From NCBI GenBank assembly GCA_000092065.1, contig CP000587.1: a DNA stretch of 64,000 nucleotides. The stretch is one strand, 5' to 3'. A program made the position numbers and the translations under genes. Within the stretch, counting starts at the first letter, position 1; every line of letters starts with the position of its first letter. A model generated the notes under the pieces. That model had not been told where the DNA came from. It searched no databases and saw only the letters and a program-made list of their open reading frames with translations. Below are positions 4,537 through 54,211 of this stretch, one piece after another. Origin of the DNA: Ostreococcus lucimarinus (taxonomy: Eukaryota).

Positions 4537-5378
4537 CGGCGCTCGGCGCGCGGCGCGGCGCGAGAGACGACGGCGAACCGCGAGTGTTCTCGTACGACGT
4601 CGTCGAGGCGCACGCGCACGACGCGAACGCGTTCACGCAGGGATTGACGACGTGCGGAGACGGGATCATGTGCGAGAGCACGGGGGCGGTGGGCGGGACG
4701 CCGAGCGAGGTGCGGACGACGACGACGGCGACGGGGGCGAGACGCGCGGGCGCGGACGTGGGCGGCGCGTTCGCGGAGGGCCTGACGCGCGTGGGCGACG
4801 ACGTGCACGTGATTTCTTGGAAGTCTAATCGCGGGTTCACGTACGCGGTGACGGCGGAGGGTGAGGTGACGAAGAAGTGGACGTTTGAGACGCCGTTGTC
4901 GGACGGTTGGGGTTTGACGTCGCTCGACGGCGAGCTGTACGTCACGGACGCGAGCGACAAGTTGCACGTGCTCGACGTCCCCGGACGGGACGGGGCGAAG
5001 TTGAAGTTGAAACGATCGATGACCATCACGGATGACGGCAAAGCCATCAGATTCGCGAACGAATTGGAGACCATAGGAGGCGACGTGTACGCCAATATCC
5101 TCGAGCGGCCGTGCTTGGCGAGAATCGATCCCGCGAACGGCAAAGTGACCGCGTGGGTGAATTTAGATGGATTGAAGCAAGCGTCCCCGAACGATGGCCG
5201 CGGTGATGTGTTGAATGGGATCGCGTACGACGAAAAACTTGATGCCTTGTACGTTACGGGCAAGAATTGGCCGACGATGTTCCGGTTGAAGCTTCGCGAG
5301 GAGCAAGGCGCGAGCCTGGACGCGGTTCGCGCGACGTGCACGCCCCCTTCGAGTCTACCGGGATACGGATACTTGTAG
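4410..5378 (+). CDS. Glutaminyl-peptide cyclotransferase, plant/bacterial beta-propeller type
   Basis: YDVVEAHAHDANAFTQGL matches the plant QC signature (Y-x-V...H...AFTQGL). It is followed by the propeller repeats WKSNRGFTYAV and DGWGLTSLDGELYVTD. Start is taken at the ATG at 4410, before a hydrophobic signal-like segment AVVACALLALA and a 12-Thr linker. The gene is divergent from the ALDH gene. Confidence 0.7.
4501..4537. repeat. (ACG)12 trinucleotide microsatellite encoding poly-Thr inside the glutaminyl cyclase CDS
   Basis: acgacgacg... run seen directly in the sequence. It translates to TTTTTTTTTTTT. Confidence 0.9.
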
Positions 5379-5424
5379 CGCGATTACGAAGGATGTAGAT
5401 TATGACACTCTTATTATTGATAAT

Positions 5425-5448
5425 AACCTATGTGATATCACATAGGTT
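5425..5448. repeat. Perfect 24-bp palindrome aacctatgtgat|atcacataggtt in a convergent 3' intergenic spacer
   Basis: The sequence equals its own reverse complement. It lies in the AT-rich gap between two convergent gene ends. Confidence 0.8.
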
Positions 5449-5539
5449 AAATACACGCTAATTCTCGCGCCGGTTAGTGGGTTCAACTTATTTTACAGCT
5501 ATCTTTCGTGTGCGTCAGCCACATACATACACACATCGT

Positions 5540-6430
5540 TTAGCCGAGCATGTTCACAAGCAAAATCCACTTGTGCTTGATTGGATTGTCTTTTTCGTCC
5601 CTCTTCTTTGCTTCCAAGTATTGATGCGTCACGATCGACATCACGGCGTGAATACAATCAAATTCTTGCCTTTCGTCCAACATCGGCACGTCTATGACCA
5701 AGTTCAAATCGTCGCACACGTTGTTCAACCACTCCTCGAGGTCACCTCGCCGTTCGTGCTCCACGGCGTCGTTAAAAAAGTGACCCGCGCCAGTGCGGCG
5801 CAGCTCGCGCTCGATAGCGTCAGCGATGCAGTCGACCGCCTTGACGCAGATGATTTGTTCCGTCATCGGATTCATCATCGGCACGTGAATCAACCGGTTC
5901 AAAAACGTCGCGATGACCCATCGCGTCGTCTGGTCGATTTCATGCGGCTGCGCGTGGTGCACCAGCGTATCCGGTTTCGGCGCTTCGTTCGCGACGTGAT
6001 CTTTCACCATCTGGAGCGCCTTCGTCGACGCCGCGCCGCGCGTCTCTCGATCCGCCAATTCCAACGCCGCGCGTCCCTCTTGCGTCTTGTGCCACTTCTC
6101 CAAATCGCGCGCCGCGCGCGACTTGAACCACCCGTGTCCGTGGTCGTGGTGGTGATTATGATGATGGGTGTGTCCACCGCCGATCGCCATGGCGTCGACG
6201 CGGACGTTACCGCGCGCGGCGGCGAGAATCGTCACCGGAGGTGTTCGACGTTTGCGGTCGCCGCCGCGCCGCGCGCGCGATGGCGTCGGCGCGCGAGCGC
6301 GCGCGGCGTCGACGCTGGCGCGCATTGTTGGTGATTCGCGACGACGCGCGCGGTCGAGCGATGCGAGGCACCGTGTGGCGATCGAGCGAGAGGGCTCGAT
6401 CGTAACGTGCCGATCGGCGGTCGGTCGCAC
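5540..6430 (-). CDS. Hypothetical protein with a histidine cluster (HTHHHNHHHDHGH) and an Arg/Ala/Ser-rich transit-peptide-like N-terminus
   Basis: The 296-aa ORF has ordinary amino-acid composition in its C-terminal 200 aa, with several E/H/D-rich helices. I do not recognise the family. The start may instead be an internal Met. Confidence 0.45.
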   Translation of the reverse strand: MRPTADRHVTIEPSRSIATRCLASLDRARRRESPTMRASVDAARARAPTPSRARRGGDRKRRTPPVTILAAARGNVRVDAMAIGGGHTHHHNHHHDHGHGWFKSRAARDLEKWHKTQEGRAALELADRETRGAASTKALQMVKDHVANEAPKPDTLVHHAQPHEIDQTTRWVIATFLNRLIHVPMMNPMTEQIICVKAVDCIADAIERELRRTGAGHFFNDAVEHERRGDLEEWLNNVCDDLNLVIDVPMLDERQEFDCIHAVMSIVTHQYLEAKKRDEKDNPIKHKWILLVNMLG

Positions 6431-6683
6431 TTATTTTGACTGCGAAGGCGAGGATTCAGAGTTGGTTCAAACTGCTGATTGCAATAGTGATTATGTGCTA
6501 AGTGTCGCGCGACTGATTCGACAGACGCGTCGGGCGCGAGCGATGATCGAGGCGATGGACGCTCGCGCCGCGGCGGCGCGCGTGAGAAATCGGGCGCAGA
6601 CAGGCGCTTCTAGTGCGTTCGCGCGCGCGGAAACCGGCGAACGAAACAAACAATCCCTTCTAAGGAAATGAATGGTCGGTGGC

Positions 6684-7664
6684 TTACGCGGCGGAGGCAC
6701 CGGCGACGAGCTCGATAATTTCCGAGGTAATCTTCGCTTGGCGAGCGCGGTTGTAAACCAAAGACAAGGTCTTCTTGAGCTCCTTGGCGTTGTCCGAGGC
6801 GGTGGACATCGCGTTCATGCGCGCCGCGAGCTCAGAGGCGAGAGACTCTTGGAGCGCACGGAGGATTTGGGAGTTCATGTACAGCGGCATGAGGGCATCA
6901 AGAATTTGGTTCGGGTCTTGCTCGAACTGCATGACACCCTCAAACTCAGAAACCTCCGTGTCAGACGCTTCGCGCTTGACGGCGAACTTGCCATCTTCAG
7001 TCGTGAGCTTGAAGATTTCATCGTTCGCCGCGTCAATGCAAACACCGTCAACGTTGCACACCTCACCTTCCTTGGAGAGCGGCAAAATGGTTTGCACGGT
7101 CGGCTCCGCAGCGATGAGGGAAACGAATCGGGAGTAAATCATCTCGACCTTGTCGACTTCCTCCGAGGTGAACTCGGCGAAGATTTCGTCGGCGATGGTT
7201 TGCGCGTCTTGCGTGGACGGCGCTTGACCCATGTCGAAGCGCTTGACCAAGTTGTATTGCTCCTTGCGACGGTTGAAGTACACACCACCCTTCTTACCGA
7301 CGGTGATGAGCTTGCATTCAACGCCTTGCGCCTTGAGCTCCGCCACGCGCTGCTCCGTCTTGCGAATAATGAAGTTGTTGAACCCCCCGCACAAACCACG
7401 ATCACCCGTGCAGACGACGAGCATCGCCGTCTTCACCGGGCGCATCTTCGTCAACGGCACGTCCACATCCTCACCAGCCAATCGGCTGTTGATGGCGAAC
7501 AAAACCTTGACCAAAGACTCAGAGAACGGGCGCGCGCCAATGACGGCGTCTTGCGCCTTGCGCACCTTCGCCGCCGCGACGAGCTTCATCGCATCGGTGA
7601 TCTTCTTCGTGTTACCGACCGACGCGATGCGGTCGCGCATTTCCTTCGGGCTCGCGTTGCGAAT
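6684..7664 (-). CDS. ATPC: ATP synthase gamma chain, chloroplastic, exon 2 (mature protein)
   Basis: RDRIASVGNTKKITDAMKLVAAAKVRKAQDAV and the rest align with chloroplast gamma subunits. The redox-regulatory Cys pair is present in EVCNVDGVCIDAANDE. A TAG stop lies immediately upstream in frame, so a 5' exon is required. Confidence 0.85.
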   Translation of the reverse strand: MRNASPKEMRDRIASVGNTKKITDAMKLVAAAKVRKAQDAVIGARPFSESLVKVLFAINSRLAGEDVDVPLTKMRPVKTAMLVVCTGDRGLCGGFNNFIIRKTEQRVAELKAQGVECKLITVGKKGGVYFNRRKEQYNLVKRFDMGQAPSTQDAQTIADEIFAEFTSEEVDKVEMIYSRFVSLIAAEPTVQTILPLSKEGEVCNVDGVCIDAANDEIFKLTTEDGKFAVKREASDTEVSEFEGVMQFEQDPNQILDALMPLYMNSQILRALQESLASELAARMNAMSTASDNAKELKKTLSLVYNRARQAKITSEIIELVAGASAA

Positions 7665-37675: not shown

Positions 37676-40600
37676 ATGTCCGCCGCGCGCGATGGCGACG
37701 CCGCCGCCATCGCCGCGGCGCACGACCGTCTCGCGCGTCATCGCGCTTTGCTCGCGAATCCCGAGCGAGTGATCGCCCCGGGCGCGTTCTGGGACGTCGT
37801 CGCCCTGACGTCCTCGAGCGCGTCCCAAACTCGCGCGTTTCGCGCGCGTTTAGACCACCTCCACGCCCGCGGCGCGCTGCCGGGCGCGCGCGAGCGATAC
37901 GTCGTGATCACCGATCCTCCCGGCGCGCGCATCGGCTCCGGGGGGGCGACGATCGCGGTGGCGAGGGAGTTGAAGTCGTGGTTCGGGGACGCGTGGCGGG
38001 ACAAACGCGTCTTCGCGCTGCACACGGGTGGATACAGCGAACGCGCGCCGCAACACGGGACGCTCGGGAAAGCGTTTGCGGAGGTGCCGATGGATTGTCG
38101 AGGGTGCGGGACGCCGGGGACGATTTTGGAGGCGCAGTTGGTGCAGTTGACGCCGCTGGCGGCGACGCTGCCGCCGGGCGTCTTCGTGTCGTGCGCCGAC
38201 GTCGCGTTGGAGTACGGCGACGTCGAAAAGAGCTTAGACGAGGAAACGCGATCGGCGATGAAGCGTGGCATCACGGCACTCGCACATCCGAGCTCTGTGG
38301 CGATCGGGGAGCAGCACGGAGTGTTCGCGTGCGATGAGGCGGAGGTCAAGGAGCGCGTGCGAGCGATGCGAGCCGGGAGAAAGTTGGCGCCGTTGGATTG
38401 CAGGCGGTGCTTACAGAAGCCCACAGAACAGGAAATGCGCGGCGCCGGGTGTGTGATGCGTGGATACGAAACCGAAGTCGATGACTGGGTGCTGACGGAC
38501 AGTTGCTTTCACATCGGCGTCGAGGCTGTGGAGGCGCTCGTCGAACTCGACGAGCGACGTCGCGACGTTTTGGCGGGGTGCGAAATTTGTGCTTATGGAG
38601 ATTTCATGCAACCACTCGGGAGCGATGCGGATACGTCATACCTGGACCGCATCGATCATCTCGCGAGCGTGACTTCTTCTACACACGCGGAAAGCGAGAC
38701 GAGATTGCGCGATGCGCGCCGCGCCGTTGCAGACGCTTTGCGAGGCCGTCCGCTCATCGTCATTCCGTTGTTTCCGAGTCGATTCATTCACCTTGGCACT
38801 ATTCCAGAGTTTTTGTATCACACGACAAAAGACGTACAGTGCCTGAAGTCGCTTCCAGCGCCAGGGATACCGGTTCACATGGCGTCTTACGTCGCAGACG
38901 ATTTTCATCAACCCGCCGACTCCGTCGTCATGTCGAGTCGCATCGGAAGAGCGTCTTCGGTAGGATCTGGGTCGTGTTTGGTGAACTGTGATATCGGCCG
39001 TGACGTCGTTATCGGCGCAAACTGCGCGATGTACGACGTTCGTCTTGAGGACGGAACGAAAGTGGAAAATGGAACATTCATGTGCACACTTCCCATAACG
39101 CGCGAGCGTTTCTCGAAACGTCACCGCGAATCGGGCGACGATGAAATCGATGACTTTTCGTCATCAATGTCTGACTGTACGTCTGCCGACGACGCCGTCG
39201 AGTTCGTGACCATTGTCATGGCCACCGACGACGAGGTAAAATCACGCACTTCGAGCACACTGTGCGGTGTTCCAGTGCGTGACGCGATTGATCGACTTGA
39301 ATTGGATAGCGGTAGCGTCTGGATGGAAGGCGAGTCGTCCACGACGACGCTCGGTCGTTTTTATAGCGTCCATCAATCTGCCGAGGAATCGTCGCGCGCC
39401 GCGCTGCGAATGGCGCACGTCGTGCGAAGCTCAGAGAATGCCGCTGAGTACGGGCGCTTCGAACGCGACCATCAGCAACAAGTGAGCATTAGCGAAGTGC
39501 TTCGGAGATATGCGAACCATGGCGCTCTCGAAACACACAGACATTCCTTACTGCGTATGGTTTTAAGCTCGACGTTGCGTCGAATGCTAGAAACTGGCCT
39601 GCCAGCGAGCGAATGGAGGCATAGAGCGTTCAACTTAACGTCGCTCGAAAACGAACTCAAAATGGAACGAGGAACAGTCCCCTTCGAAGCAAAAACAATG
39701 CACCTTATTTCGGAGCTACTGGGCGAGACAGAGGCTGAGCGTTTGGATGTCCGCTCGCTTCGACATCGTTTGGACTGTAGCCGAGTGGCGCTCTCTTTAG
39801 CCCTACCGGGCGCGCTCGATGACGCGCGCGCAAATCTTGCGCGCATCCTCACCGAATCATCCACCGTATCGGCGTGCGGTATGCTTGCGAGATCGAATAT
39901 GCCCGTGTGTAGCGTGCGCGTGGCGTATCCAGCGAGATTCAATCTCGCCGGTGGATGGACGGATACCCCGCCGTACTCGCTGGAGCGCCCAGGCGCTGTG
40001 TTGCACGTACCAGGGCTCGTGAATGGCACCAAGCCCATCGTTGCGAAGTTGACCCGCATCGACGACCCCGTCGTACGTCTCGTGATGCGAGACGATGTAT
40101 CGGGCGAAGAAATACGCGAAGACGTTCTTCATTATGGTGATCTCCTGCCGAACCGATATTCCGACCCGATGACGCCGTTTGCTCTCCACAAAGCCGTCCT
40201 CGTGCAGTTTTGGTTCAGGGAAATTATTGAAATTTCGTTGGAATTCGGTTGCAATTTCATCGAACCTGCGTTGCATGGAAAACGGTTGATTGCGATCGAC
40301 AAGCCTGGCGTAGAGATACGAACGGAAGTAAATCTCCCAAAAGGCTCTGGTCTCGGCACGAGTAGTATCCTCGCCTTAGCGATGCTGCACGCGATGTACG
40401 ACTTCACATACGGTACGCGCTTGAGGCCTCGGTTTGAAGAAGAAGATCGAATCGAACTTACTGCGGATGTACAGTGGACCGATGAAAATGGGAAAGTGCT
40501 CGATGTCGAAGATGACCATCGCGCGTCGCCAAAGGAAGCTCTCAAGCTGTCTGACATCGTGAACTGTGTGCTCGTGGTTGAGCAGATGATCACGACGGGT

Positions 40601-41242
40601 GGTGGGTGGCAAGACCAAGTCGGTGGCGCGTTGAATGGTCTTCGCCTAAGTCTTTCGAAACCTAGTGATCGCAGTTTCTCCCCTGATTATGACTACTTCC
40701 CCAAGTACACCTACCGTCTGTGTGAGATGGACGCGCCCTGCGCGCGTCTCTTGAACTCGCGCTTTGCGTGCGTGTTCACCGGGACGTGTCGATTGGCGAA
40801 GACCGTCTGTGATTCTGTCGTCACAACGTGGCAAAGACGTGATATTGGCGTTGAGCGTGCTTTACAACAGTGTGCTGACTTGGCAACGCAAATGTTTGAG
40901 GTATTCCAGGCGATCTCCAAGTCTTCGCGCGAAAGCGCCGCGACGCCAAACGTATCAGATTGTCGGGAAGAATACCTGATCTCGCGTCTCGGTGCGCTCC
41001 TCGAAGAACACAAACGCGTGCAACAATCGCTGTGGTCATCAATTGAAAGTCCCACTATACGTGCCATTTACGACGCGCTCGAGCCTCTGAGTTACGGCTC
41101 TTTCATTTGCGGCGCCGGGTCAGGCGGACACGTGATCGCATTTCTGAAACCATCGGCCACGCGCGAGCGCGTCCACGATGCCGTGCGCGCATGTACCGGC
41201 GCCCCCGACGCGCGCGTTGTGGATGTAGAATTAATTCTGTAA
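37676..41242 (+). CDS. FKGP: Bifunctional L-fucokinase / GDP-L-fucose pyrophosphorylase (FKGP-like)
   Basis: N-terminal fucose-1-P guanylyltransferase/fucokinase-type region (GGYSERAP). C-terminal GHMP-kinase motif PKGSGLGTSSILALAM. 1188 aa. Confidence 0.8.
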   Translation: MSAARDGDAAAIAAAHDRLARHRALLANPERVIAPGAFWDVVALTSSSASQTRAFRARLDHLHARGALPGARERYVVITDPPGARIGSGGATIAVARELKSWFGDAWRDKRVFALHTGGYSERAPQHGTLGKAFAEVPMDCRGCGTPGTILEAQLVQLTPLAATLPPGVFVSCADVALEYGDVEKSLDEETRSAMKRGITALAHPSSVAIGEQHGVFACDEAEVKERVRAMRAGRKLAPLDCRRCLQKPTEQEMRGAGCVMRGYETEVDDWVLTDSCFHIGVEAVEALVELDERRRDVLAGCEICAYGDFMQPLGSDADTSYLDRIDHLASVTSSTHAESETRLRDARRAVADALRGRPLIVIPLFPSRFIHLGTIPEFLYHTTKDVQCLKSLPAPGIPVHMASYVADDFHQPADSVVMSSRIGRASSVGSGSCLVNCDIGRDVVIGANCAMYDVRLEDGTKVENGTFMCTLPITRERFSKRHRESGDDEIDDFSSSMSDCTSADDAVEFVTIVMATDDEVKSRTSSTLCGVPVRDAIDRLELDSGSVWMEGESSTTTLGRFYSVHQSAEESSRAALRMAHVVRSSENAAEYGRFERDHQQQVSISEVLRRYANHGALETHRHSLLRMVLSSTLRRMLETGLPASEWRHRAFNLTSLENELKMERGTVPFEAKTMHLISELLGETEAERLDVRSLRHRLDCSRVALSLALPGALDDARANLARILTESSTVSACGMLARSNMPVCSVRVAYPARFNLAGGWTDTPPYSLERPGAVLHVPGLVNGTKPIVAKLTRIDDPVVRLVMRDDVSGEEIREDVLHYGDLLPNRYSDPMTPFALHKAVLVQFWFREIIEISLEFGCNFIEPALHGKRLIAIDKPGVEIRTEVNLPKGSGLGTSSILALAMLHAMYDFTYGTRLRPRFEEEDRIELTADVQWTDENGKVLDVEDDHRASPKEALKLSDIVNCVLVVEQMITTGGGWQDQVGGALNGLRLSLSKPSDRSFSPDYDYFPKYTYRLCEMDAPCARLLNSRFACVFTGTCRLAKTVCDSVVTTWQRRDIGVERALQQCADLATQMFEVFQAISKSSRESAATPNVSDCREEYLISRLGALLEEHKRVQQSLWSSIESPTIRAIYDALEPLSYGSFICGAGSGGHVIAFLKPSATRERVHDAVRACTGAPDARVVDVELIL

Positions 41243-48388: not shown

Positions 48389-49543
48389 TTAATATACGGA
48401 TGCGTTACCACTTTCTTCAAACGCGAACAAATCGGGATACGCACGCATCGGTTTCTCCAATCCATCGCTCCCGAGTACGTCAATCAGGCAAGAGAGACAG
48501 CGTTTTGCATAAAGTCTGGCGTCCGGATGCCCCCCACGAATACACACGTCCAGAGTCGCGAGGGTGAGGTCTAAAGCTGTCCGTCCAGCTCTCCCTCGAA
48601 AGACGGAGGCGCACTCGGCGTTGCGTTCGACACAATACGTCAAGGCGAACGCGATTTTCGCTTGAAGTCTTCGAGCCGAAACATGTTGCGACAGTGTCCG
48701 GATAACTGCGTGAGGGGCAGCCGCCTCTATCAAGACGTGCAAAACCTCGTCTGCTTCTGCTGAGAGGAAACTCGACTCGCTGGCGCGCTTGAGAACGCTC
48801 GGGAAAACGCATCCAAGTTCACCGTTGATCTTACCTTTTAAATGCACCGCCAGCGTCTTGATGAGACTGAGTGCGGCTTTCGAAATAGAACTTCGCAAGC
48901 TCTCGAGACACGATGTGACGCCGATGATGAAAGGACGCAAATTCGCGGACACCACGCCGACGTGATGAATGACGAGTCGATTCGCGAGCGCAATCGCCTC
49001 CAAGCGCTCTTCCCACGCGCGCTCCGCAGCGCCTCTCAAAACCACCAATACTCCAACCATCACGGTCTCAGGGTCGTTCAAAGGCGCCAAATTTGCGTAC
49101 GTCTCAAACACCGCCCGCTCGCTCTTCTTTCTCGCCGAAGGCGCGCGAACCGGCATCGCCAAACCGGCGGGCGCTCGAGACCCGCTCCGCGTTACCACTC
49201 GACCCGTTCGTTTCCGTTGCTTCAGCGCCATCAACGCATCATTCACGCTTCTCCGCAGCGTCGCTTCTCGTCCTCGACTCGCGCTCGCGCCGACATCTCG
49301 CGTCACCTCGCCGCGTCGTCGTCTCGCGTCCGCCTCCGAGTCCTCGCTCGACGCCGCCTCCTCGACGCCGATGGATGACCCTTTGGACTCCGTCGGACTC
49401 TCCATTCGCGGCGCGTCGCTCGCGTCGTACATCGCCAGCGCATCCACGCGCACGGGGCAGCACGCGATCGCGCGCATGCTCGATCGACGCGCGTCAAAGT
49501 GGCCAAATTTAGCTTCGTCCATGTCAAATGCCAAAGTCACCAA
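48389..49543 (-). CDS. HEAT/ARM-like repeat protein (CLASP_N/TOG-like?)
   Basis: The 384-aa ORF has a helical-repeat-like composition. The assignment is weak. Confidence 0.4.
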   Translation of the reverse strand: MVTLAFDMDEAKFGHFDARRSSMRAIACCPVRVDALAMYDASDAPRMESPTESKGSSIGVEEAASSEDSEADARRRRGEVTRDVGASASRGREATLRRSVNDALMALKQRKRTGRVVTRSGSRAPAGLAMPVRAPSARKKSERAVFETYANLAPLNDPETVMVGVLVVLRGAAERAWEERLEAIALANRLVIHHVGVVSANLRPFIIGVTSCLESLRSSISKAALSLIKTLAVHLKGKINGELGCVFPSVLKRASESSFLSAEADEVLHVLIEAAAPHAVIRTLSQHVSARRLQAKIAFALTYCVERNAECASVFRGRAGRTALDLTLATLDVCIRGGHPDARLYAKRCLSCLIDVLGSDGLEKPMRAYPDLFAFEESGNASVY

Positions 49544-49592: not shown

Positions 49593-52500
49593 ATGGCGCG
49601 CACCGCGCGCGCGCGCGCGCGCGGCGACGCGACCCGACGTTCGTGGCGCGCGCGCGTCGCGCTCGCCCTCGTCGGCGCGTGCGTCGGCGCGTGCGCGACG
49701 CGCTCTGTCGACGCGATGTGGTTCGGTAAGAAATCTTCAGGCGCGGCGGAAAGGGTGCGCGCGGACGCGCTGGACGACGGCACGACGCCGGGCGCGCGCG
49801 GCGGGACGGAGTTAATGTCGGCGGCGTTGGAAGCGCGCGTGCCGCGGGCGCTGGTGAAGCGATTTCACGTGGTGAAGTCGCGCGTGCGCGCGCTGAGCGC
49901 CGACGCGCGACGGCCGAACGTGCTGTGGTTGCAGGATTTGCCCAACGATCCCGAGAGCGAGCATCTGCGCGAAGAGAAGAATCGGGAAAAGTTTGCAAAA
50001 TTCATGTTCGTGAGTGAGTGGCAGAAAAGCGCGTATGAGTCGTATTTCGGGGATGTATTCGGAGAGAAGGCGGTGGTGATGAGAAACGCCATCGAGCCGT
50101 TCGAACGTCAACGTAAAGAACCTCCGGAGGATGGAGTGCTGCGGTTGATTTATCACACCACGCCGCATCGTGGATTGGATATATTGATGCACGTGTTCCC
50201 GAGATTGTACGACGCGCACGAGGGTATGTTGCATTTGGACGTGTATTCAAGCTTTTCTATATACGGGTGGCACGAACGAGACCATCCGTACGCGCCGTTG
50301 TTTCAGGCGTGTGAGCAACATCCAGGATGTACGTATCACGGCGCGGTGTCGAATGACGATGTACGAGACGCATTGCGTTCGGCGCATATTTTTGCCTATC
50401 CCTCGACGTGGATGGAGACGTCGTGCATCGCCGCCATCGAGGCGTTGAGCGCAGGCGTGCACGTCGTGACGAGCAGTTTAGGCGCGCTCGTCGAGACAGT
50501 CGGTACTTTCGGTACTATATACGAGTTTAAGCAAGATTGGTCAGAACATGCGGATGCGTTCGAGCAAGCGATGCATGGGGCGATCGAGTCTTACTGGGAG
50601 GTGACTTCGGTTCGTCTCCGGCGAGTACAACAAGTGTATGCGTCGCAAATCTTCGGCTGGGGATCGCCTGGATTAAGGGGACGCGCCGATGACTGGATTG
50701 TACTTCTCGGTGGCATCCACGAGGATTTTAATGGGGGGCGTGACGTAGGGAGGGATGATTTTGATTCAGACGGCGATTATTCCGACGCTCTTTTCGTTGC
50801 AGGTAGAGTGAGAGAATCTCGGGGCGACCAGAAGGGTGCGTACGAAAAGTATCTGCAATCTCTCGAGTTCAATCCTTTGAATTCGTACACTATGGTTGCG
50901 ATGAGTACCTTGGAGATCATGGTCGGCGAATCGAATGGTGATCACTCGACGGCATTACGGGGCATCGAGCGGATGGAGTCTGCCATCGATGACCCCGATG
51001 GCCTCTCGCCGCCGCTCGAGCCGAATTCCGCCGCTTATTTTGGCATCGCCATGCGAAGCGGATACTGGAGAGAGACGCGAAATTGGGCCGCACGCGCGCG
51101 CATTAATTTTGAAAAGGGTTTAAACACTTCTCAACATGGCGAAGACGATTGCTGGGAGCTGTATTACGCCACGATTGTGCCCCACTTTCCGTTGACGCCC
51201 GAGGAGGAGCGCCGCAGGATCCAAAAGTATAATGCCGGAATCGACGAAATGCTCCGCAAGGACGATCTTTTCTGCCGTAATCAAGCAGGTTTAGGCAACG
51301 TGTTTTCAATCGCGTACTACTTCGATGGCGTAGACTATAAGGACGAGTACTCGAGATGGGTGCAACTGAAGTTGAAGGCGTTCCCGGATCTTTTGTACAA
51401 GGCGAATGCGCTCGTGTACGAAAACGACGACAACTATCTGTCGAGCGCGCAGAGCACGGCTGTGCAGAAGGCGCTCATGCGTCGTAAAATCAAGATTGGT
51501 GCCGTCTCATCATTTTTCACGTCCGAGTCGAGCATTTGGGGAAACTTCGGAGAAATCGTGCTCGGGCTTCAACGCGACGCGCGATTTGAAGTCGACATGG
51601 TGCACTACCCACGCGATCCGATCAAGGAGGAGGATATAAATCTCTCGTTGCGTCCCGAACGAAGCATCGTGTTGATAAAGGGCGGTGATCTCGAAACCGT
51701 CAAAGCGAATCGCGAGGCGATCGAAGAGAGAAGGTTTGATGTTCTGATTTATCTTGACCTGTTCATGACGGGCGAGATGCACGATCTCGCCGTGGCGAAA
51801 CTGGCACCGGTACAAATGGTCACGCACGGTCACCCCGTAACATCTGGTATCCCGGCTTGGATCATGGATTATTTTATTTCTTGGGATCTTGCCGAGCTTC
51901 CCGATCAAAAGAAAGCGCAGAGCTTCTATACGGAGGAGTTACTGCTGGTTAAGAGTAAAAAGGCGGCGTGGGAGTACTACAAGCCACGAACTGAAGGAGA
52001 AGTATCGATCATTGTTGGTGAAGCGCCGTTCTATCAATTCACCAGAGAAAATCTTGATTTCATTCCGGCTGAAGAAATGGAGAAACTCTCATCCCGTGAC
52101 GGTTTGACATGGTATTTCTGCCCGCAAGCCGTGTTCAAGTATCACATTACGTTTGACCAGATTTTGGGCAAGATACAAAGAGAAGATCCGAACGCAATAA
52201 TCATTCTCATGAAGCTCGTCGATAACGCGCTTGAGGCGTTGCACGAAAAAGTCGTGGAAAGATTAATTAAGCAAGGAGACGTTGATCTCGACCGCGTCGT
52301 GTTCATTCCGCGAATGAAGCATTACCAGTTAATGGCAATGTACAAGCTGTCAGACGTCGTTTTGGATAGCGTTTATTTTGGTGGCGACACCACGACGCGA
52401 GAAGCTTTCGAAGTTGGTTCGCCCGTGATTACACTACCCGGTAAGACCATTGGTCAGCGTTGGACACAAGCTTATTACAGAGTCATGGGCATCAAGGATT

Positions 52501-52733
52501 TCATCGCCAGAACGGTTGACGAATATGTTCGAATCGCCGTCAAGGCGGCGAACGCAACAGACAAGCAAAAGTCGAATACACGCGCTCGCATCAAGAAAGC
52601 ACTGCATAAAAAATTGTTCAAAAATGCGGATGCTCCGAGGTTGTGGGGGGATGCCATCATGAGTGCGCTGCAGAAGCCCAAGCGTTGGCACTGGATCGAG
52701 GCCGAACCGCTGAAACAACACGACGAGCTTTAG
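49593..52733 (+). CDS. Multidomain glycosyltransferase: signal anchor, GT4 (GT-B group 1) domain, TPR-like linker and C-terminal GT41 (O-GlcNAc transferase-like) catalytic domain
   Basis: Signal anchor ARVALALVGACVGACA. The GT-B block is AYPSTWMETSCIAAIEALSAGVHVVTSSLGALVETV. The C-terminal blocks THGHPVTSGIPAWIMDYFISWD and YFGGDTTTREAFEVGSPVITLPGKTIGQRWTQAYY match the OGT/SPY C-terminal domain. The start is the internal ATG at 49593. Confidence 0.7.
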   Translation: MARTARARARGDATRRSWRARVALALVGACVGACATRSVDAMWFGKKSSGAAERVRADALDDGTTPGARGGTELMSAALEARVPRALVKRFHVVKSRVRALSADARRPNVLWLQDLPNDPESEHLREEKNREKFAKFMFVSEWQKSAYESYFGDVFGEKAVVMRNAIEPFERQRKEPPEDGVLRLIYHTTPHRGLDILMHVFPRLYDAHEGMLHLDVYSSFSIYGWHERDHPYAPLFQACEQHPGCTYHGAVSNDDVRDALRSAHIFAYPSTWMETSCIAAIEALSAGVHVVTSSLGALVETVGTFGTIYEFKQDWSEHADAFEQAMHGAIESYWEVTSVRLRRVQQVYASQIFGWGSPGLRGRADDWIVLLGGIHEDFNGGRDVGRDDFDSDGDYSDALFVAGRVRESRGDQKGAYEKYLQSLEFNPLNSYTMVAMSTLEIMVGESNGDHSTALRGIERMESAIDDPDGLSPPLEPNSAAYFGIAMRSGYWRETRNWAARARINFEKGLNTSQHGEDDCWELYYATIVPHFPLTPEEERRRIQKYNAGIDEMLRKDDLFCRNQAGLGNVFSIAYYFDGVDYKDEYSRWVQLKLKAFPDLLYKANALVYENDDNYLSSAQSTAVQKALMRRKIKIGAVSSFFTSESSIWGNFGEIVLGLQRDARFEVDMVHYPRDPIKEEDINLSLRPERSIVLIKGGDLETVKANREAIEERRFDVLIYLDLFMTGEMHDLAVAKLAPVQMVTHGHPVTSGIPAWIMDYFISWDLAELPDQKKAQSFYTEELLLVKSKKAAWEYYKPRTEGEVSIIVGEAPFYQFTRENLDFIPAEEMEKLSSRDGLTWYFCPQAVFKYHITFDQILGKIQREDPNAIIILMKLVDNALEALHEKVVERLIKQGDVDLDRVVFIPRMKHYQLMAMYKLSDVVLDSVYFGGDTTTREAFEVGSPVITLPGKTIGQRWTQAYYRVMGIKDFIARTVDEYVRIAVKAANATDKQKSNTRARIKKALHKKLFKNADAPRLWGDAIMSALQKPKRWHWIEAEPLKQHDEL

Positions 52734-52780
52734 ACTTGAATAGTTTACGTAGATTATTACATAAAGTCGACAGCGATAAC

Positions 52781-53512
52781 TCACACCTTCTTCGCCTTGG
52801 CACCGCCGAACAACTTTTTCACCGTGCGCACAATCATCATTATGATGCGCCAACCCCACATCACGGACACGACGAAGATGCCAAGAGCGCCCGCCTTGAC
52901 GATGTACGTGTTCGAGTCGTTCACGACCGTTCGCCATACCAACGGCGGACCGACGATGAGTCGGCAAAGCAAGAACAACAGCGCAAACAACAAGTCATTC
53001 AACGTCGCCAGGAGACTATCCTTCATGTTCAATTCGCGCAACATGGAGCGCAAGTGCAAGCTCGGATTGCTCACCTCCATCAAAAACAAGCACCCGACCA
53101 GTTCGGGGCCACTGCGCCCGGTGATGACTCCGCTCGCGAGCCCGCCGACGGTGAACATGTGATGGACCACATTCTCCACCTCGTTATTCAACAGGCAATA
53201 AAAGAAGTCGTACACGAAATAACCCAGCGACAGCGTCATGCACTCCAAGTGCGCCATCGTGTTCGCTCCGCCTACGTTCTCCAACAGCGCCCCCCACGTC
53301 GGCAGGCATCGCGCGCACATGTAAATGGCCACGACGGCGTGAATGAAGCTCACAGTGCGATTGGAAAAGTCGGCTGTGCGTCGGCGCAGGACGCCGAAGC
53401 GCAGGAAGACGTAGAGTAGCGTCCACCCGACGCTCTGCGGGACAACCTTTTGCAGCGAAGGAATGGCGACGCGGAGGTACTCCAAGTCGAGCGACGGCGA
53501 CTTACTAACCAT
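52781..53512 (-). CDS. TLC (TRAM/LAG1/CLN8) domain membrane protein
   Basis: Six hydrophobic helices. HHMFTVGG...MEVSNPSLHLRSML matches TLC-domain blocks. Confidence 0.65.
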   Translation of the reverse strand: MVSKSPSLDLEYLRVAIPSLQKVVPQSVGWTLLYVFLRFGVLRRRTADFSNRTVSFIHAVVAIYMCARCLPTWGALLENVGGANTMAHLECMTLSLGYFVYDFFYCLLNNEVENVVHHMFTVGGLASGVITGRSGPELVGCLFLMEVSNPSLHLRSMLRELNMKDSLLATLNDLLFALLFLLCRLIVGPPLVWRTVVNDSNTYIVKAGALGIFVVSVMWGWRIIMMIVRTVKKLFGGAKAKKV

Positions 53513-53709
53513 AATGACGTCGTTGATGATGTTCTTCGCGTATCAGGACGCGATAATGCGGCCTAGCGCGGTGAGCGATGCGCTGTGACGGCGGACATGG
53601 CGAAGGTTAAATCTATTGAGCGAGGAGACGCGCGAGCCAAGAGCGCGCACGGCGGCCAATGGCGAGTCTATGCGGTTTAGCGGCCAATCTATGCATTGAT
53701 ATTCTATAT

Positions 53710-53982
53710 CTAAAACCAAAAGTTGATGCTTATCGACGGCGTGAGTGCGCGGACGTAGTGCCAGCATTTTGCCGGGATGTAAACAAAGTCGCCCGGTCCG
53801 ACTATAACTTCGTACGCCGTAGCTAAGCTAAATTCAGGGAAGCGATCGAGGTCGGGGTGTTCCACGTCCACAGCGGAGAAGTTCCCTTGCGAATGTCTCG
53901 TCGTGGATTTAGACGCGGTCGTGCGGTACATGTAAGGCGTATCCGACTCGAGAAATAGTCTTATCAACTTGTATCCCGCAAC
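53710..53982 (-). CDS. JmjC-domain protein, exon 2 (C-terminal part of the JmjC fold)
   Basis: VAGYKLIRLF...VDVEHPDLDRFPEF...PGDFVYIPAKCWHYVRALTPSISINFWF. The track's 'M' at 54000 is actually a GTG codon, not an ATG. This exon starts at the acceptor tttttgtgcttgcag|GTT. Confidence 0.7.
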   Translation of the reverse strand, partial: VAGYKLIRLFLESDTPYMYRTTASKSTTRHSQGNFSAVDVEHPDLDRFPEFSLATAYEVIVGPGDFVYIPAKCWHYVRALTPSISINFWF

Positions 53983-54211
53983 CTGCAAGCACAAAAACAC
54001 GCGAAGTGAGTCGACGGCGGCGGCGGGGTTGGCGAATACGAATGTAGGGCGCTGTGTAGGCCGACGCTCATAACTTTGATACGCCGGTTCTATTGGCGCT
54101 CGCGTTTATGTAGGGAGTCGGTATCACCGGGCTGCCATGACTTTCACAGACCGGCTTCTATTAGACTCCCGCAACGAAAGTGGACAAAAATACGAGTTGC
54201 TCAAAGCGCAC
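53983..54211 (-). other. Intron (229 nt) of the JmjC gene
   Basis: Donor GGTCAG|GTGCGC immediately after the FGQ codons. The acceptor has a pyrimidine tract plus CAG. Both exons are in phase 0. The joined sequence reads HFDTYDNLFGQ|VAGYKLIRLF, restoring the conserved JmjC motif. Confidence 0.65.

Follow-up and report, generated by a model that had tools for sequence, protein, structure and literature searches.

Positions 49593–52733 (+) of a 64,000-nucleotide stretch of the Ostreococcus lucimarinus genome (contig CP000587.1 of assembly GCA_000092065.1; the whole stretch is called the window below) hold a single open reading frame (ORF) of 1046 codons, which runs from an ATG at 49593 to a TAA at 52731–52733 with no internal stop codon in 3138 nucleotides. 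A preliminary description, made from the letters of the window alone, had read this ORF as a fusion of a GT4-type glycosyltransferase (GT) domain, a linker of tetratricopeptide repeats (TPRs) and a GT41-type domain resembling O-GlcNAc transferase (OGT), all behind a hydrophobic signal anchor, and every sequence string that it quoted is present in the 1046-residue protein. Pfam searches, alignments, a structure model and fold comparisons upheld its central claim of one polypeptide that joins GT4, helical and GT41 parts and carries a hydrophobic segment predicted to target it to the secretory pathway. Residue numbers below are those of the product of 49593–52730; a 1070-residue form, which starts at 49521, adds 24 N-terminal residues.

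One apparently intron-less gene for a GT4–helical–GT41 protein

GT41 enzymes are inverting protein glycosyltransferases, and GT4 enzymes are retaining. The C-terminal module (51411–52694, +) is an inverting-type GT-B catalytic module like those of OGT and the plant protein SPINDLY (SPY). It scored 67.8 bits with Pfam PF13844, whose cut-off is 25 (E = 7.6e-19), and in phmmer searches of the PDB the last 446 residues retrieved fly OGT (E = 6.7e-15), human OGT (E = 5e-13), Arabidopsis SPY (E = 4e-12) and bacterial XcOGT (E = 1.7e-11), with HMW1C and the N-glycosyltransferase NGT reaching only E = 0.02–0.03. These last matches, and a weak NCBIfam match to UDP-glucose:protein N-beta-glucosyltransferase (E = 2.7e-4; 19.7 bits, where the cut-off is 1000), would fit an enzyme of the HMW1C/NGT type that places hexose on the Asn of N-X-S/T in the lumen of the endoplasmic reticulum (ER), in parallel to oligosaccharyltransferase; GT41 includes the HMW1C-type enzymes, which form hexose–hexose bonds too (PMC3012730). 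However, the similarity to OGT and SPY was stronger by at least 10 orders of magnitude, and the top structural matches (see below) were all TPR-bearing OGT, SPY and XcOGT, with no AAD-domain NGTs among them, so we regard an N-glycosyltransferase as highly improbable.

We counted conservation over 127 diverse GT41-like and 95 diverse GT4-like modules aligned to the family profile. In the GT41-like set, the THGHPVTSG loop in the N-lobe of the catalytic domain (51822–51848, +) was nearly fixed at G746 (127/127), H747 (125/127), P748 (126/127) and T750 (122/127). THGHP begins at residue 744 and MDYFISWD occupies residues 758–765, and the human OGT loop LGYPGTSG and the MDYIIT that follows it align with HGHPVTSGIP and MDYFISW, respectively. 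The QAVFK segment (52125–52139, +) contains K849, the counterpart of the essential human OGT Lys842 (Lys852 in UniProt numbering): the profile alignment of 'FKyh' to 'YKid' pairs K849, in FKYH, with OGT K842. K849 was kept in all 127 modules and Q845, which is one residue out of register with OGT Q839, in 126 of them. Farther along, YFGGDTTTREAFEVGSPVITLPGKTIGQRWTQAYY begins at residue 928, and the GGDTTTRE loop (52380–52403, +) aligns with human OGT NGH920-T921-T922-GMD925, which makes phosphate and ribose contacts; T933 (112/127), T934 (121/127) and E937 (125/127) were conserved in this loop, as was R956 after it (127/127). On the acceptor side, D554 and H558 of OGT align with F641 and E645, such that the OGT loop SSD554FGNH558PTSH reads SSFFTSESSIWGNFG here, and the family has its own SSFFxxxSSIWGNFG in place of the D554/H558 loop. 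Sequence, fold and key residues all place the C-terminal half in the GT41 superfamily as a divergent branch, with ~15% identity in structural alignments, base contacts other than those of OGT and a predicted lumenal address.

The N-terminal module (residues ~60–375; 49770–50717, +) is a retaining-type GT4 module with a reduced N-lobe. Residues 176–329 matched PF00534 (57.9 bits against a cut-off of 26.4, E = 1e-15) and PF13692 (52.6 bits against 27, E = 8e-14), and the two-lobed GT-B fold of the module was closest to retaining GT4 structures, in agreement with its PDB sequence matches. The hallmark of retaining GT4 enzymes, the EX7E motif, is present as ETSCIAAIE (E275 and E283; 50415–50441, +), and AYPSTWMETSCIAAIEALSAGVHVVTS, another of the quoted strings, lies around residues 268–294. 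Both glutamates were almost invariant in the GT4-like set (E275 in 93/95, E283 in 94/95), as was S219 (95/95). The place of the GT4 'GRxxxxKG' diphosphate-binding loop is taken by YHTTPHRG (50151–50174, +), with Y187 kept in 95, R193 in 94 and G194 in 94 of the 95 modules. Of the R...K phosphate pair, the position of R193 is retained, and His or Thr occupies the first basic one. The EX7E and R/K features of retaining GT-B enzymes have been described (PMC11666461), and comparison with their R/K pair suggests that the loop binds the diphosphate of the donor.

Because the catalytic motifs are almost invariant across very divergent modules, both active sites look functional. From the reduced GT4 N-lobe and from substitutions at the positions of OGT His920, His901, Arg904, Asp554 and His558, one might suspect that catalysis is confined to one module and that its partner has degenerated into a GT-B fold for binding sugar or protein, in the role of a lectin, scaffold or folding sensor. 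Yet the residues for catalysis and donor binding are near-invariant in both sets of modules, and the substituted OGT positions carry other residues that are themselves invariant in the family, which is not the pattern of drift; we therefore consider a single active module very unlikely.

Between the two catalytic modules lies a helical region (50769–51380, +; residues ~393–596) of some ten paired helices, assigned by DSSP at residues 417–620 of the model of the 1070-residue form. The preliminary description had called it a TPR linker. The solenoid is there in the model, and a family profile compared with consensus TPR proteins found ~2 weak repeats (profile positions 344–443, per-repeat i-Evalues 0.01–2); at the level of the single sequence, no Pfam TPR family matched the protein at E ≤ 1, and one repeat matched a designed TPR protein (CTPR) at E = 0.026. 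Precomputed TPR Pfam matches are present on an orthologue fragment (P0031), and Foldseek alignments to SPY, OGT and XcOGT cover 640–890 columns. 'TPR-like solenoid' therefore seems a fair description of the modelled region.

The full-length AlphaFold model, built for the 1070-residue form on 18 homologues, had a mean predicted local distance difference test score (pLDDT) of 84.7 and a predicted template-modelling score (pTM) of 0.81, with the three parts packed together and disorder limited to residues 1–83 and the last nine residues of that form. In a Foldseek search of the PDB, the 50 best matches were all SPY, OGT, XcOGT or TtOGT (E = 2e-23 to 1e-21). The TM-score normalised to XcOGT was 0.68 over ~645 columns, an alignment long enough that the helical region and the catalytic domain must match jointly. 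A search of the BFVD collection of viral structures returned generic GT-B matches, none of them specific.

That two adjacent genes had been mistaken for one ORF was a general concern, and would have been signalled by a domain that failed to match its family or by transcripts that split the gene. Instead, both domains matched the families named for them, and a transcriptome-derived (MMETSP) protein from Mantoniella (P0017) covers 93% of the query as one product. In addition, the 3138 nucleotides lack a stop codon, the architecture runs unbroken through over 20 cluster representatives with identities as low as ~41%, the Mantoniella protein among them, and the model packs the three parts into one body with the pTM given above, which together leave a gene-model artefact with next to no likelihood. 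The locus appears to be one intron-less gene encoding one protein.

Predicted targeting signals at the two ends

Residues 1–41 (49593–49715, +) are laid out as a predicted signal peptide, with an Arg-rich n-region, a hydrophobic h-region and a c-region that ends in V-D-A before M42. The h-region, VALALVGACVGACA, is 14 residues long (49656–49697) and gives a 19-residue Kyte–Doolittle mean of 1.48; the string that had been quoted as the signal anchor, ALALVGACVGACA, lies within residues 22–35. In the alignment of orthologues the hydrophobic stretch is retained and is followed by small residues at positions −3 and −1 (VEA, ADA, VDA, IDA or CHA), and the pLDDT is below 50 across the predicted signal peptide. 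The N-terminal hydrophobic segment of the preliminary description was thus found, but its core of only 14 residues, followed by V-D-A, suggests a cleavable signal peptide, which is the more likely case, rather than an anchor.

At the other end, in a tail that is disordered in the model, the protein closes with HDEL and the stop codon (52719–52733, +; HDEL at 52719–52730), an ER retrieval signal that had been overlooked. A strict [KRHQSA][DENQ]EL end was found in 14 of 22 cluster representatives of the eukaryote-type two-domain protein, against a chance expectation of 4e-4 calculated from the composition of the O. lucimarinus protein itself, and 20 of the 22 end in E-L or E-F. The orthologues close with KDEL, RDEL, HDEL, KNEL, SDEL, RDEF, HDEF, HVEL or HIEL, and the 15–30 residues before these ends vary freely. 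Among 53 stand-alone phage-like GT4 modules, taken as a control, there were one signal-peptide-like N terminus and one KDEL-like end, both in the same protein (P0106), apparently a stand-alone protein of a eukaryote.

Together, the hydrophobic segment, the VDA motif and the conserved HDEL-type end point to a soluble resident of the ER lumen, and not to the Golgi enzyme that had been proposed. In that earlier proposal the protein would be a type II, signal-anchored Golgi resident, for which one can cite the strongly basic stretch before the hydrophobic segment, in keeping with the positive-inside rule, and the hydrophobic segments of 17–19 residues in some orthologues. The 14-residue h-region is short, however, with less hydropathy than a membrane span would be expected to show, and it is followed by a −3/−1 cleavage motif; moreover, the conserved HDEL, KDEL or RDEL is a retrieval signal of ER residents and would be pointless on a Golgi resident. 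We accordingly think a Golgi location distinctly unlikely. An uncleaved N-in anchor would in any case leave the same lumenal orientation.

Four cysteines touch on the question of location: C240 (50310–50312, +), C246 (50328–50330, +), C520 (51150–51152, +) and C561 (51273–51275, +). Most fused eukaryotic proteins have Cys at positions 246 and 561, where the stand-alone, phage-like and other modules have Ile, Met, Val or Leu. This pattern is a weak hint that Cys246 and Cys561 may be paired in disulfides in the lumen, with C240 and C520 as candidate partners.

Relatives, module shuffling and the locus

A profile search of 1.84 billion representatives returned 3560 clusters at E < 1e-30. The best named relatives were from Ostreococcus tauri (63–64% identity) and Mantoniella antarctica (51%), and the full two-domain architecture was retained from 66% to ~41% identity, in Mamiellophyceae and, from one named member (Fragilariopsis cylindrus), in diatoms. 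Exact database look-ups found no record for the 1046-residue product or for the O. tauri protein (P0009).

Each half also occurs alone. Stand-alone helical plus GT41-like proteins of ~600–700 residues have signal peptides where their N termini are complete, and frequently xxEL ends; those with a named source are from the diatoms Corethron, Thalassiosira, Amphora and Seminavis (P0119, P0109, P0251, P0258, P0261, P0269 and others), and these many signal-peptide-bearing paralogues suggest an expanded lumenal GT41-like family in diatoms. Stand-alone GT4-like proteins, by comparison, are ~310–340 residues long and lack targeting signals. The GT4 module (taken here as 49755–50795) shared 46% identity, across 89% of its length, with a ~317-residue glycosyltransferase of Stenotrophomonas phage DLP6, 43% with proteins of Sinorhizobium phages phiM12, M7, M19 and N3, 36% with one of Caulobacter phage Cr30 and 27–28% with those of Pelagibacter phages, and it also matched PHROG 2170; such identity to phage proteins is unusually high for a domain of an algal ER protein. 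We place the N-terminal half in a small GT4 subtype of phage-like character. The phage genes examined in context (L005 6001–6924 and L006 6001–6795) lie in auxiliary regions among hypothetical genes, with no functional clue. One GT4-like homologue of 695 residues (P0032) is interrupted by an intein, to judge from precomputed Pfam matches to Hint_2, intein-splicing and LAGLIDADG domains.

The preliminary description had presented GT41 domains as preceded by TPRs only, and that generalisation does not hold: metagenomic, bacterial-type and giant-virus-like proteins join GT41-like units with GT4, GT25, GT32 and methyltransferase modules. Among bacterial-style proteins, one of 2762 residues carries a TPR array with several GT41-like units (P0089, 28–30% identity) and one of 1168 residues combines a canonical GT4 with TPRs and GT41 (P0127), and a protein of 1534 residues places FkbM and Methyltransf_24 domains ahead of a GT4–helical–GT41 unit (P0141, 27% identity over 931 residues). 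Other versions lie on AT-rich, dense, intron-less contigs (L001, L002 and L004, the last at 4537–6855) that we read as giant-virus contigs from their genes for dynamin, SET, dUTPase, tRNA synthetase, GT25 and PLOD-type GT proteins; one related locus comes from a published giant-virus metagenome-assembled genome. On these contigs the order may be reversed, with helical and GT41-like parts before the GT4-like part (P0029, L001 3830–6415), or four GT domains may follow one another as GT41-like, GT32, GT4-like and GT25 (P0030, L002 10001–14125), and the giant-virus-like versions have neither a signal peptide nor an xDEL end. The GT4–GT41 fusion is therefore not unique to Ostreococcus, and the recurrence of the two modules together in several arrangements argues that they act on the same product.

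Within the window the gene sits among dense genes on both strands, and tblastn found no paralogue of either module elsewhere in the window. We favour the start codon at 49593–49595 (+), as had been proposed; an in-frame alternative ATG lies at 49521–49523, and gene callers have used both starts on identical metagenome contigs (49521 in P0001, 1070 residues; 49593 in P0040, 1046 residues). The mechanical start of the ORF at 48969 overlaps a minus-strand CLASP_N-like gene, so an extension that far is not credible as plus-strand coding sequence. The ATG at 49521 and the candidate ATG of that divergent gene (48389–49521, −) overlap in the sequence CATG at 49519–49523, and if the two starts are instead 49593 and MDEAKF the divergent spacer is only ~70 bp. 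The 3′ spacer is also extremely compact (52733–52781), with the stop codon 47 bp from that of a convergent gene for a TLC-domain (TRAM/LAG1/CLN8) protein (52781–53512, −). Besides the CLASP-like gene, further neighbours encode a threonyl-tRNA synthetase and a methyltransferase, and a cupin/JmjC protein downstream with the TLC-domain gene. Identical copies of the gene lie on independent marine metagenome contigs with the same neighbours.

Base composition was uninformative as to a foreign origin. The G+C content of the gene is 0.54, compared with a window mean of ~0.61, and local G+C content drops to 0.52–0.53 over 50001–54000. The gene's third-codon-position value (0.63) equals that of several neighbours, so the lower content is not in itself a sign of foreign origin.

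The preliminary description had also connected the gene to two others in the window as parts of elaborate protein O-glycosylation. Their annotations proved sound: an HPAT gene lies at 512–2290 (−; PF23452, E = 3e-46), and a gene for a bifunctional fucose pyrophosphorylase with a GHMP kinase domain lies at 37676–41242 (+; PF07959, E = 6e-70). The functional link was not borne out. The fusion gene is ~47 kb from the HPAT gene and ~8 kb from that for fucokinase/GDP-fucose pyrophosphorylase, with unrelated housekeeping genes between, and on a eukaryotic chromosome such proximity is no evidence of co-function. We rejected a functional cluster with these genes; the unrelated neighbours recur on independent contigs.

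Possible roles of the fusion protein

The interpretation that we favour, and to which we give about an even chance, is that of a two-step protein glycosyltransferase in the ER lumen. The signal peptide would carry the protein across the ER membrane and place the whole catalytic body in the lumen, and HDEL would return escaped protein from the cis-Golgi by way of the KDEL receptor. One rigid protein would then hold two GT-B sites that use nucleotide sugars, a retaining GT4 site (EX7E, R193) and an inverting GT41 site (K849, T933/T934, E937). The TPR-like/GT41 unit would bind a lumenal polypeptide and put a first sugar on a side-chain hydroxyl, and the GT4 module would add an alpha-linked second sugar, so that secretory or surface proteins would end up with a short mark of two sugars. 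The lumenal location, the protein acceptor, the order of the transfers and their stereochemistry are what we infer by analogy with known enzymes, and the order could be the reverse, since some GT4 enzymes (GtfA and SdgB) are themselves protein O-GlcNAc transferases.

The likeness to known GT41 systems (animal OGT, the plant protein O-fucosyltransferase SPY, XcOGT and TtOGT) is in the fusion of a TPR-type helical solenoid to a GT-B catalytic domain, in the essential Lys, the G-x-P-x-T-S-G loop, the acidic ribose-binding residue and the T-T of the phosphate loop, whose His920 position differs, and, for SPY and the bacterial enzymes, in the lack of an intervening domain. The O. lucimarinus protein differs from them in its ~5 helical hairpins, against 11–13.5 TPRs, in the extra GT4 module upstream, and in its predicted signal peptide and HDEL, whereas OGT and SPY are nucleocytoplasmic and the bacterial forms cytoplasmic. 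The closest functional analogues are POFUT1 (GT65, ending RDEF), POGLUT1 (GT90, KTEL) and EOGT (GT61, KDEL-like), soluble lumenal enzymes of animals with a signal peptide and KDEL-type retention that draw on nucleotide sugars of the lumen to put single sugars on Ser or Thr in secretory proteins; some orthologues of the algal protein likewise end in RDEF. They belong to unrelated CAZy families and have neither a TPR solenoid nor a second GT domain, and our searches found no sequence similarity and no top-ranking structural similarity between them and the algal protein. As for the GT4 part, the phage enzymes (PHROG 2170; DLP6, phiM12 and Cr30) are stand-alone proteins of ~310–340 residues with neither a signal peptide nor an xDEL end, whereas the algal module is embedded in a predicted ER protein of 1046 residues; the canonical PF13439 N-lobe of GT4 was not detected in it.

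Several observations weigh against a two-step enzyme of the ER lumen. With respect to location, the Arg-rich N terminus could also be read as an organellar presequence, the longer hydrophobic segments of some orthologues are compatible with an anchor, and the Fragilariopsis-type orthologues (P0021 and P0026) lack an xDEL end. With respect to chemistry, the residue at the OGT H920 position is Asp in this protein, and among the 127 GT41-like modules it is Cys in 67 and Asp in 45, and the OGT uridine contacts H901 and R904 are replaced by L913 and M916; these two, like D554 and H558, mark the UDP-GlcNAc-using OGT and not GT41 as a whole. The reaction may thus differ from that of OGT, and so may the donor. 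The GT4 N-lobe is reduced to four strands in the model, with no Pfam match to the canonical PF13439 N-lobe in the protein, and the closest relatives of the module are stand-alone phage enzymes. Finally, proteins with one retaining and one inverting GT are often polymerases and not two-step decorators (PMC11666461).

This last point leads to a different possibility, in which the GT4 and GT41-like sites would alternate as a co-polymerase and extend a primer into a polymer of repeating alpha/beta disaccharides, as do LARGE, EXT1/2, the heparosan synthases and the bacterial capsule polymerase Cps3D. By homology each chain does carry one retaining-type and one inverting-type site, as such an enzyme would need, and in having two GT sites of opposite stereochemical type per chain the protein resembles LARGE1, EXT1/2 and Cps3D. 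Cps3D comes closest, since it combines TPRs, a TagF-like GT-B domain and an EX7E GT4 domain and performs two alternating transfers (PMC11666461). In the algal protein, though, the second GT-B module is GT41-like and not TagF-like (no PF04464 match in Pfam), GT49 or GT64, and the retention signal is that of the ER and not of the Golgi or the bacterial inner membrane. Matrix polymers are normally made in the Golgi, so that ER retention would be unusual for their synthesis, and all characterised GT41 enzymes that we know of glycosylate protein side chains. Furthermore, diatom GT41-like units are very often stand-alone secreted proteins and phages have the GT4 module by itself, which argues that each can work without the other. 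We rate a co-polymerase below two-step decoration because the second domain is GT41-like, the modules are commonly stand-alone and ER retention is atypical for polymer synthesis, and consider it unlikely overall.

We searched the literature for GT41 in combination with Ostreococcus, KDEL or the ER lumen, signal peptides, giant viruses, diatoms and microalgae, and found neither a lumenal GT41 nor this GT4–GT41 fusion described; an inventory of algal glycosyltransferases from 2013 mentions green-algal GT41 only as SPY-type (PMC3797821). We also advance, tentatively, a broader proposal, which we think less probable than not: that these proteins are the first lumenal branch of GT41, a system of ER protein glycosylation in marine algae (Mamiellophyceae and diatoms) that joins a GT41-like/TPR unit to a phage-type GT4, has been shared and reshuffled with giant viruses, and makes a novel two-sugar O-linked mark on secretory or cell-surface proteins, possibly one relevant to virus attachment.

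GT41 enzymes such as OGT and SPINDLY are the textbook case of glycosylation that stays within the nucleus and cytosol or, in bacteria, within the cytoplasm, and we know of no GT41 enzyme that works in the ER lumen. If our reading is correct, the GT41 catalytic scaffold would have been recruited into the ER lumen in major groups of marine phytoplankton to act on secretory proteins, in a manner analogous to POFUT1, POGLUT1 and EOGT but of independent origin. Because Ostreococcus tauri can be transformed (PMC6562926), the ER-lumen hypothesis is directly testable. The coupling to a phage-type GT4, together with the rearranged giant-virus-like copies, also makes the family a good case for gene flow among phages or bacteria, giant viruses and algae, and the protein would be a candidate enzyme for the unexplained surface glycans of picoalgae.

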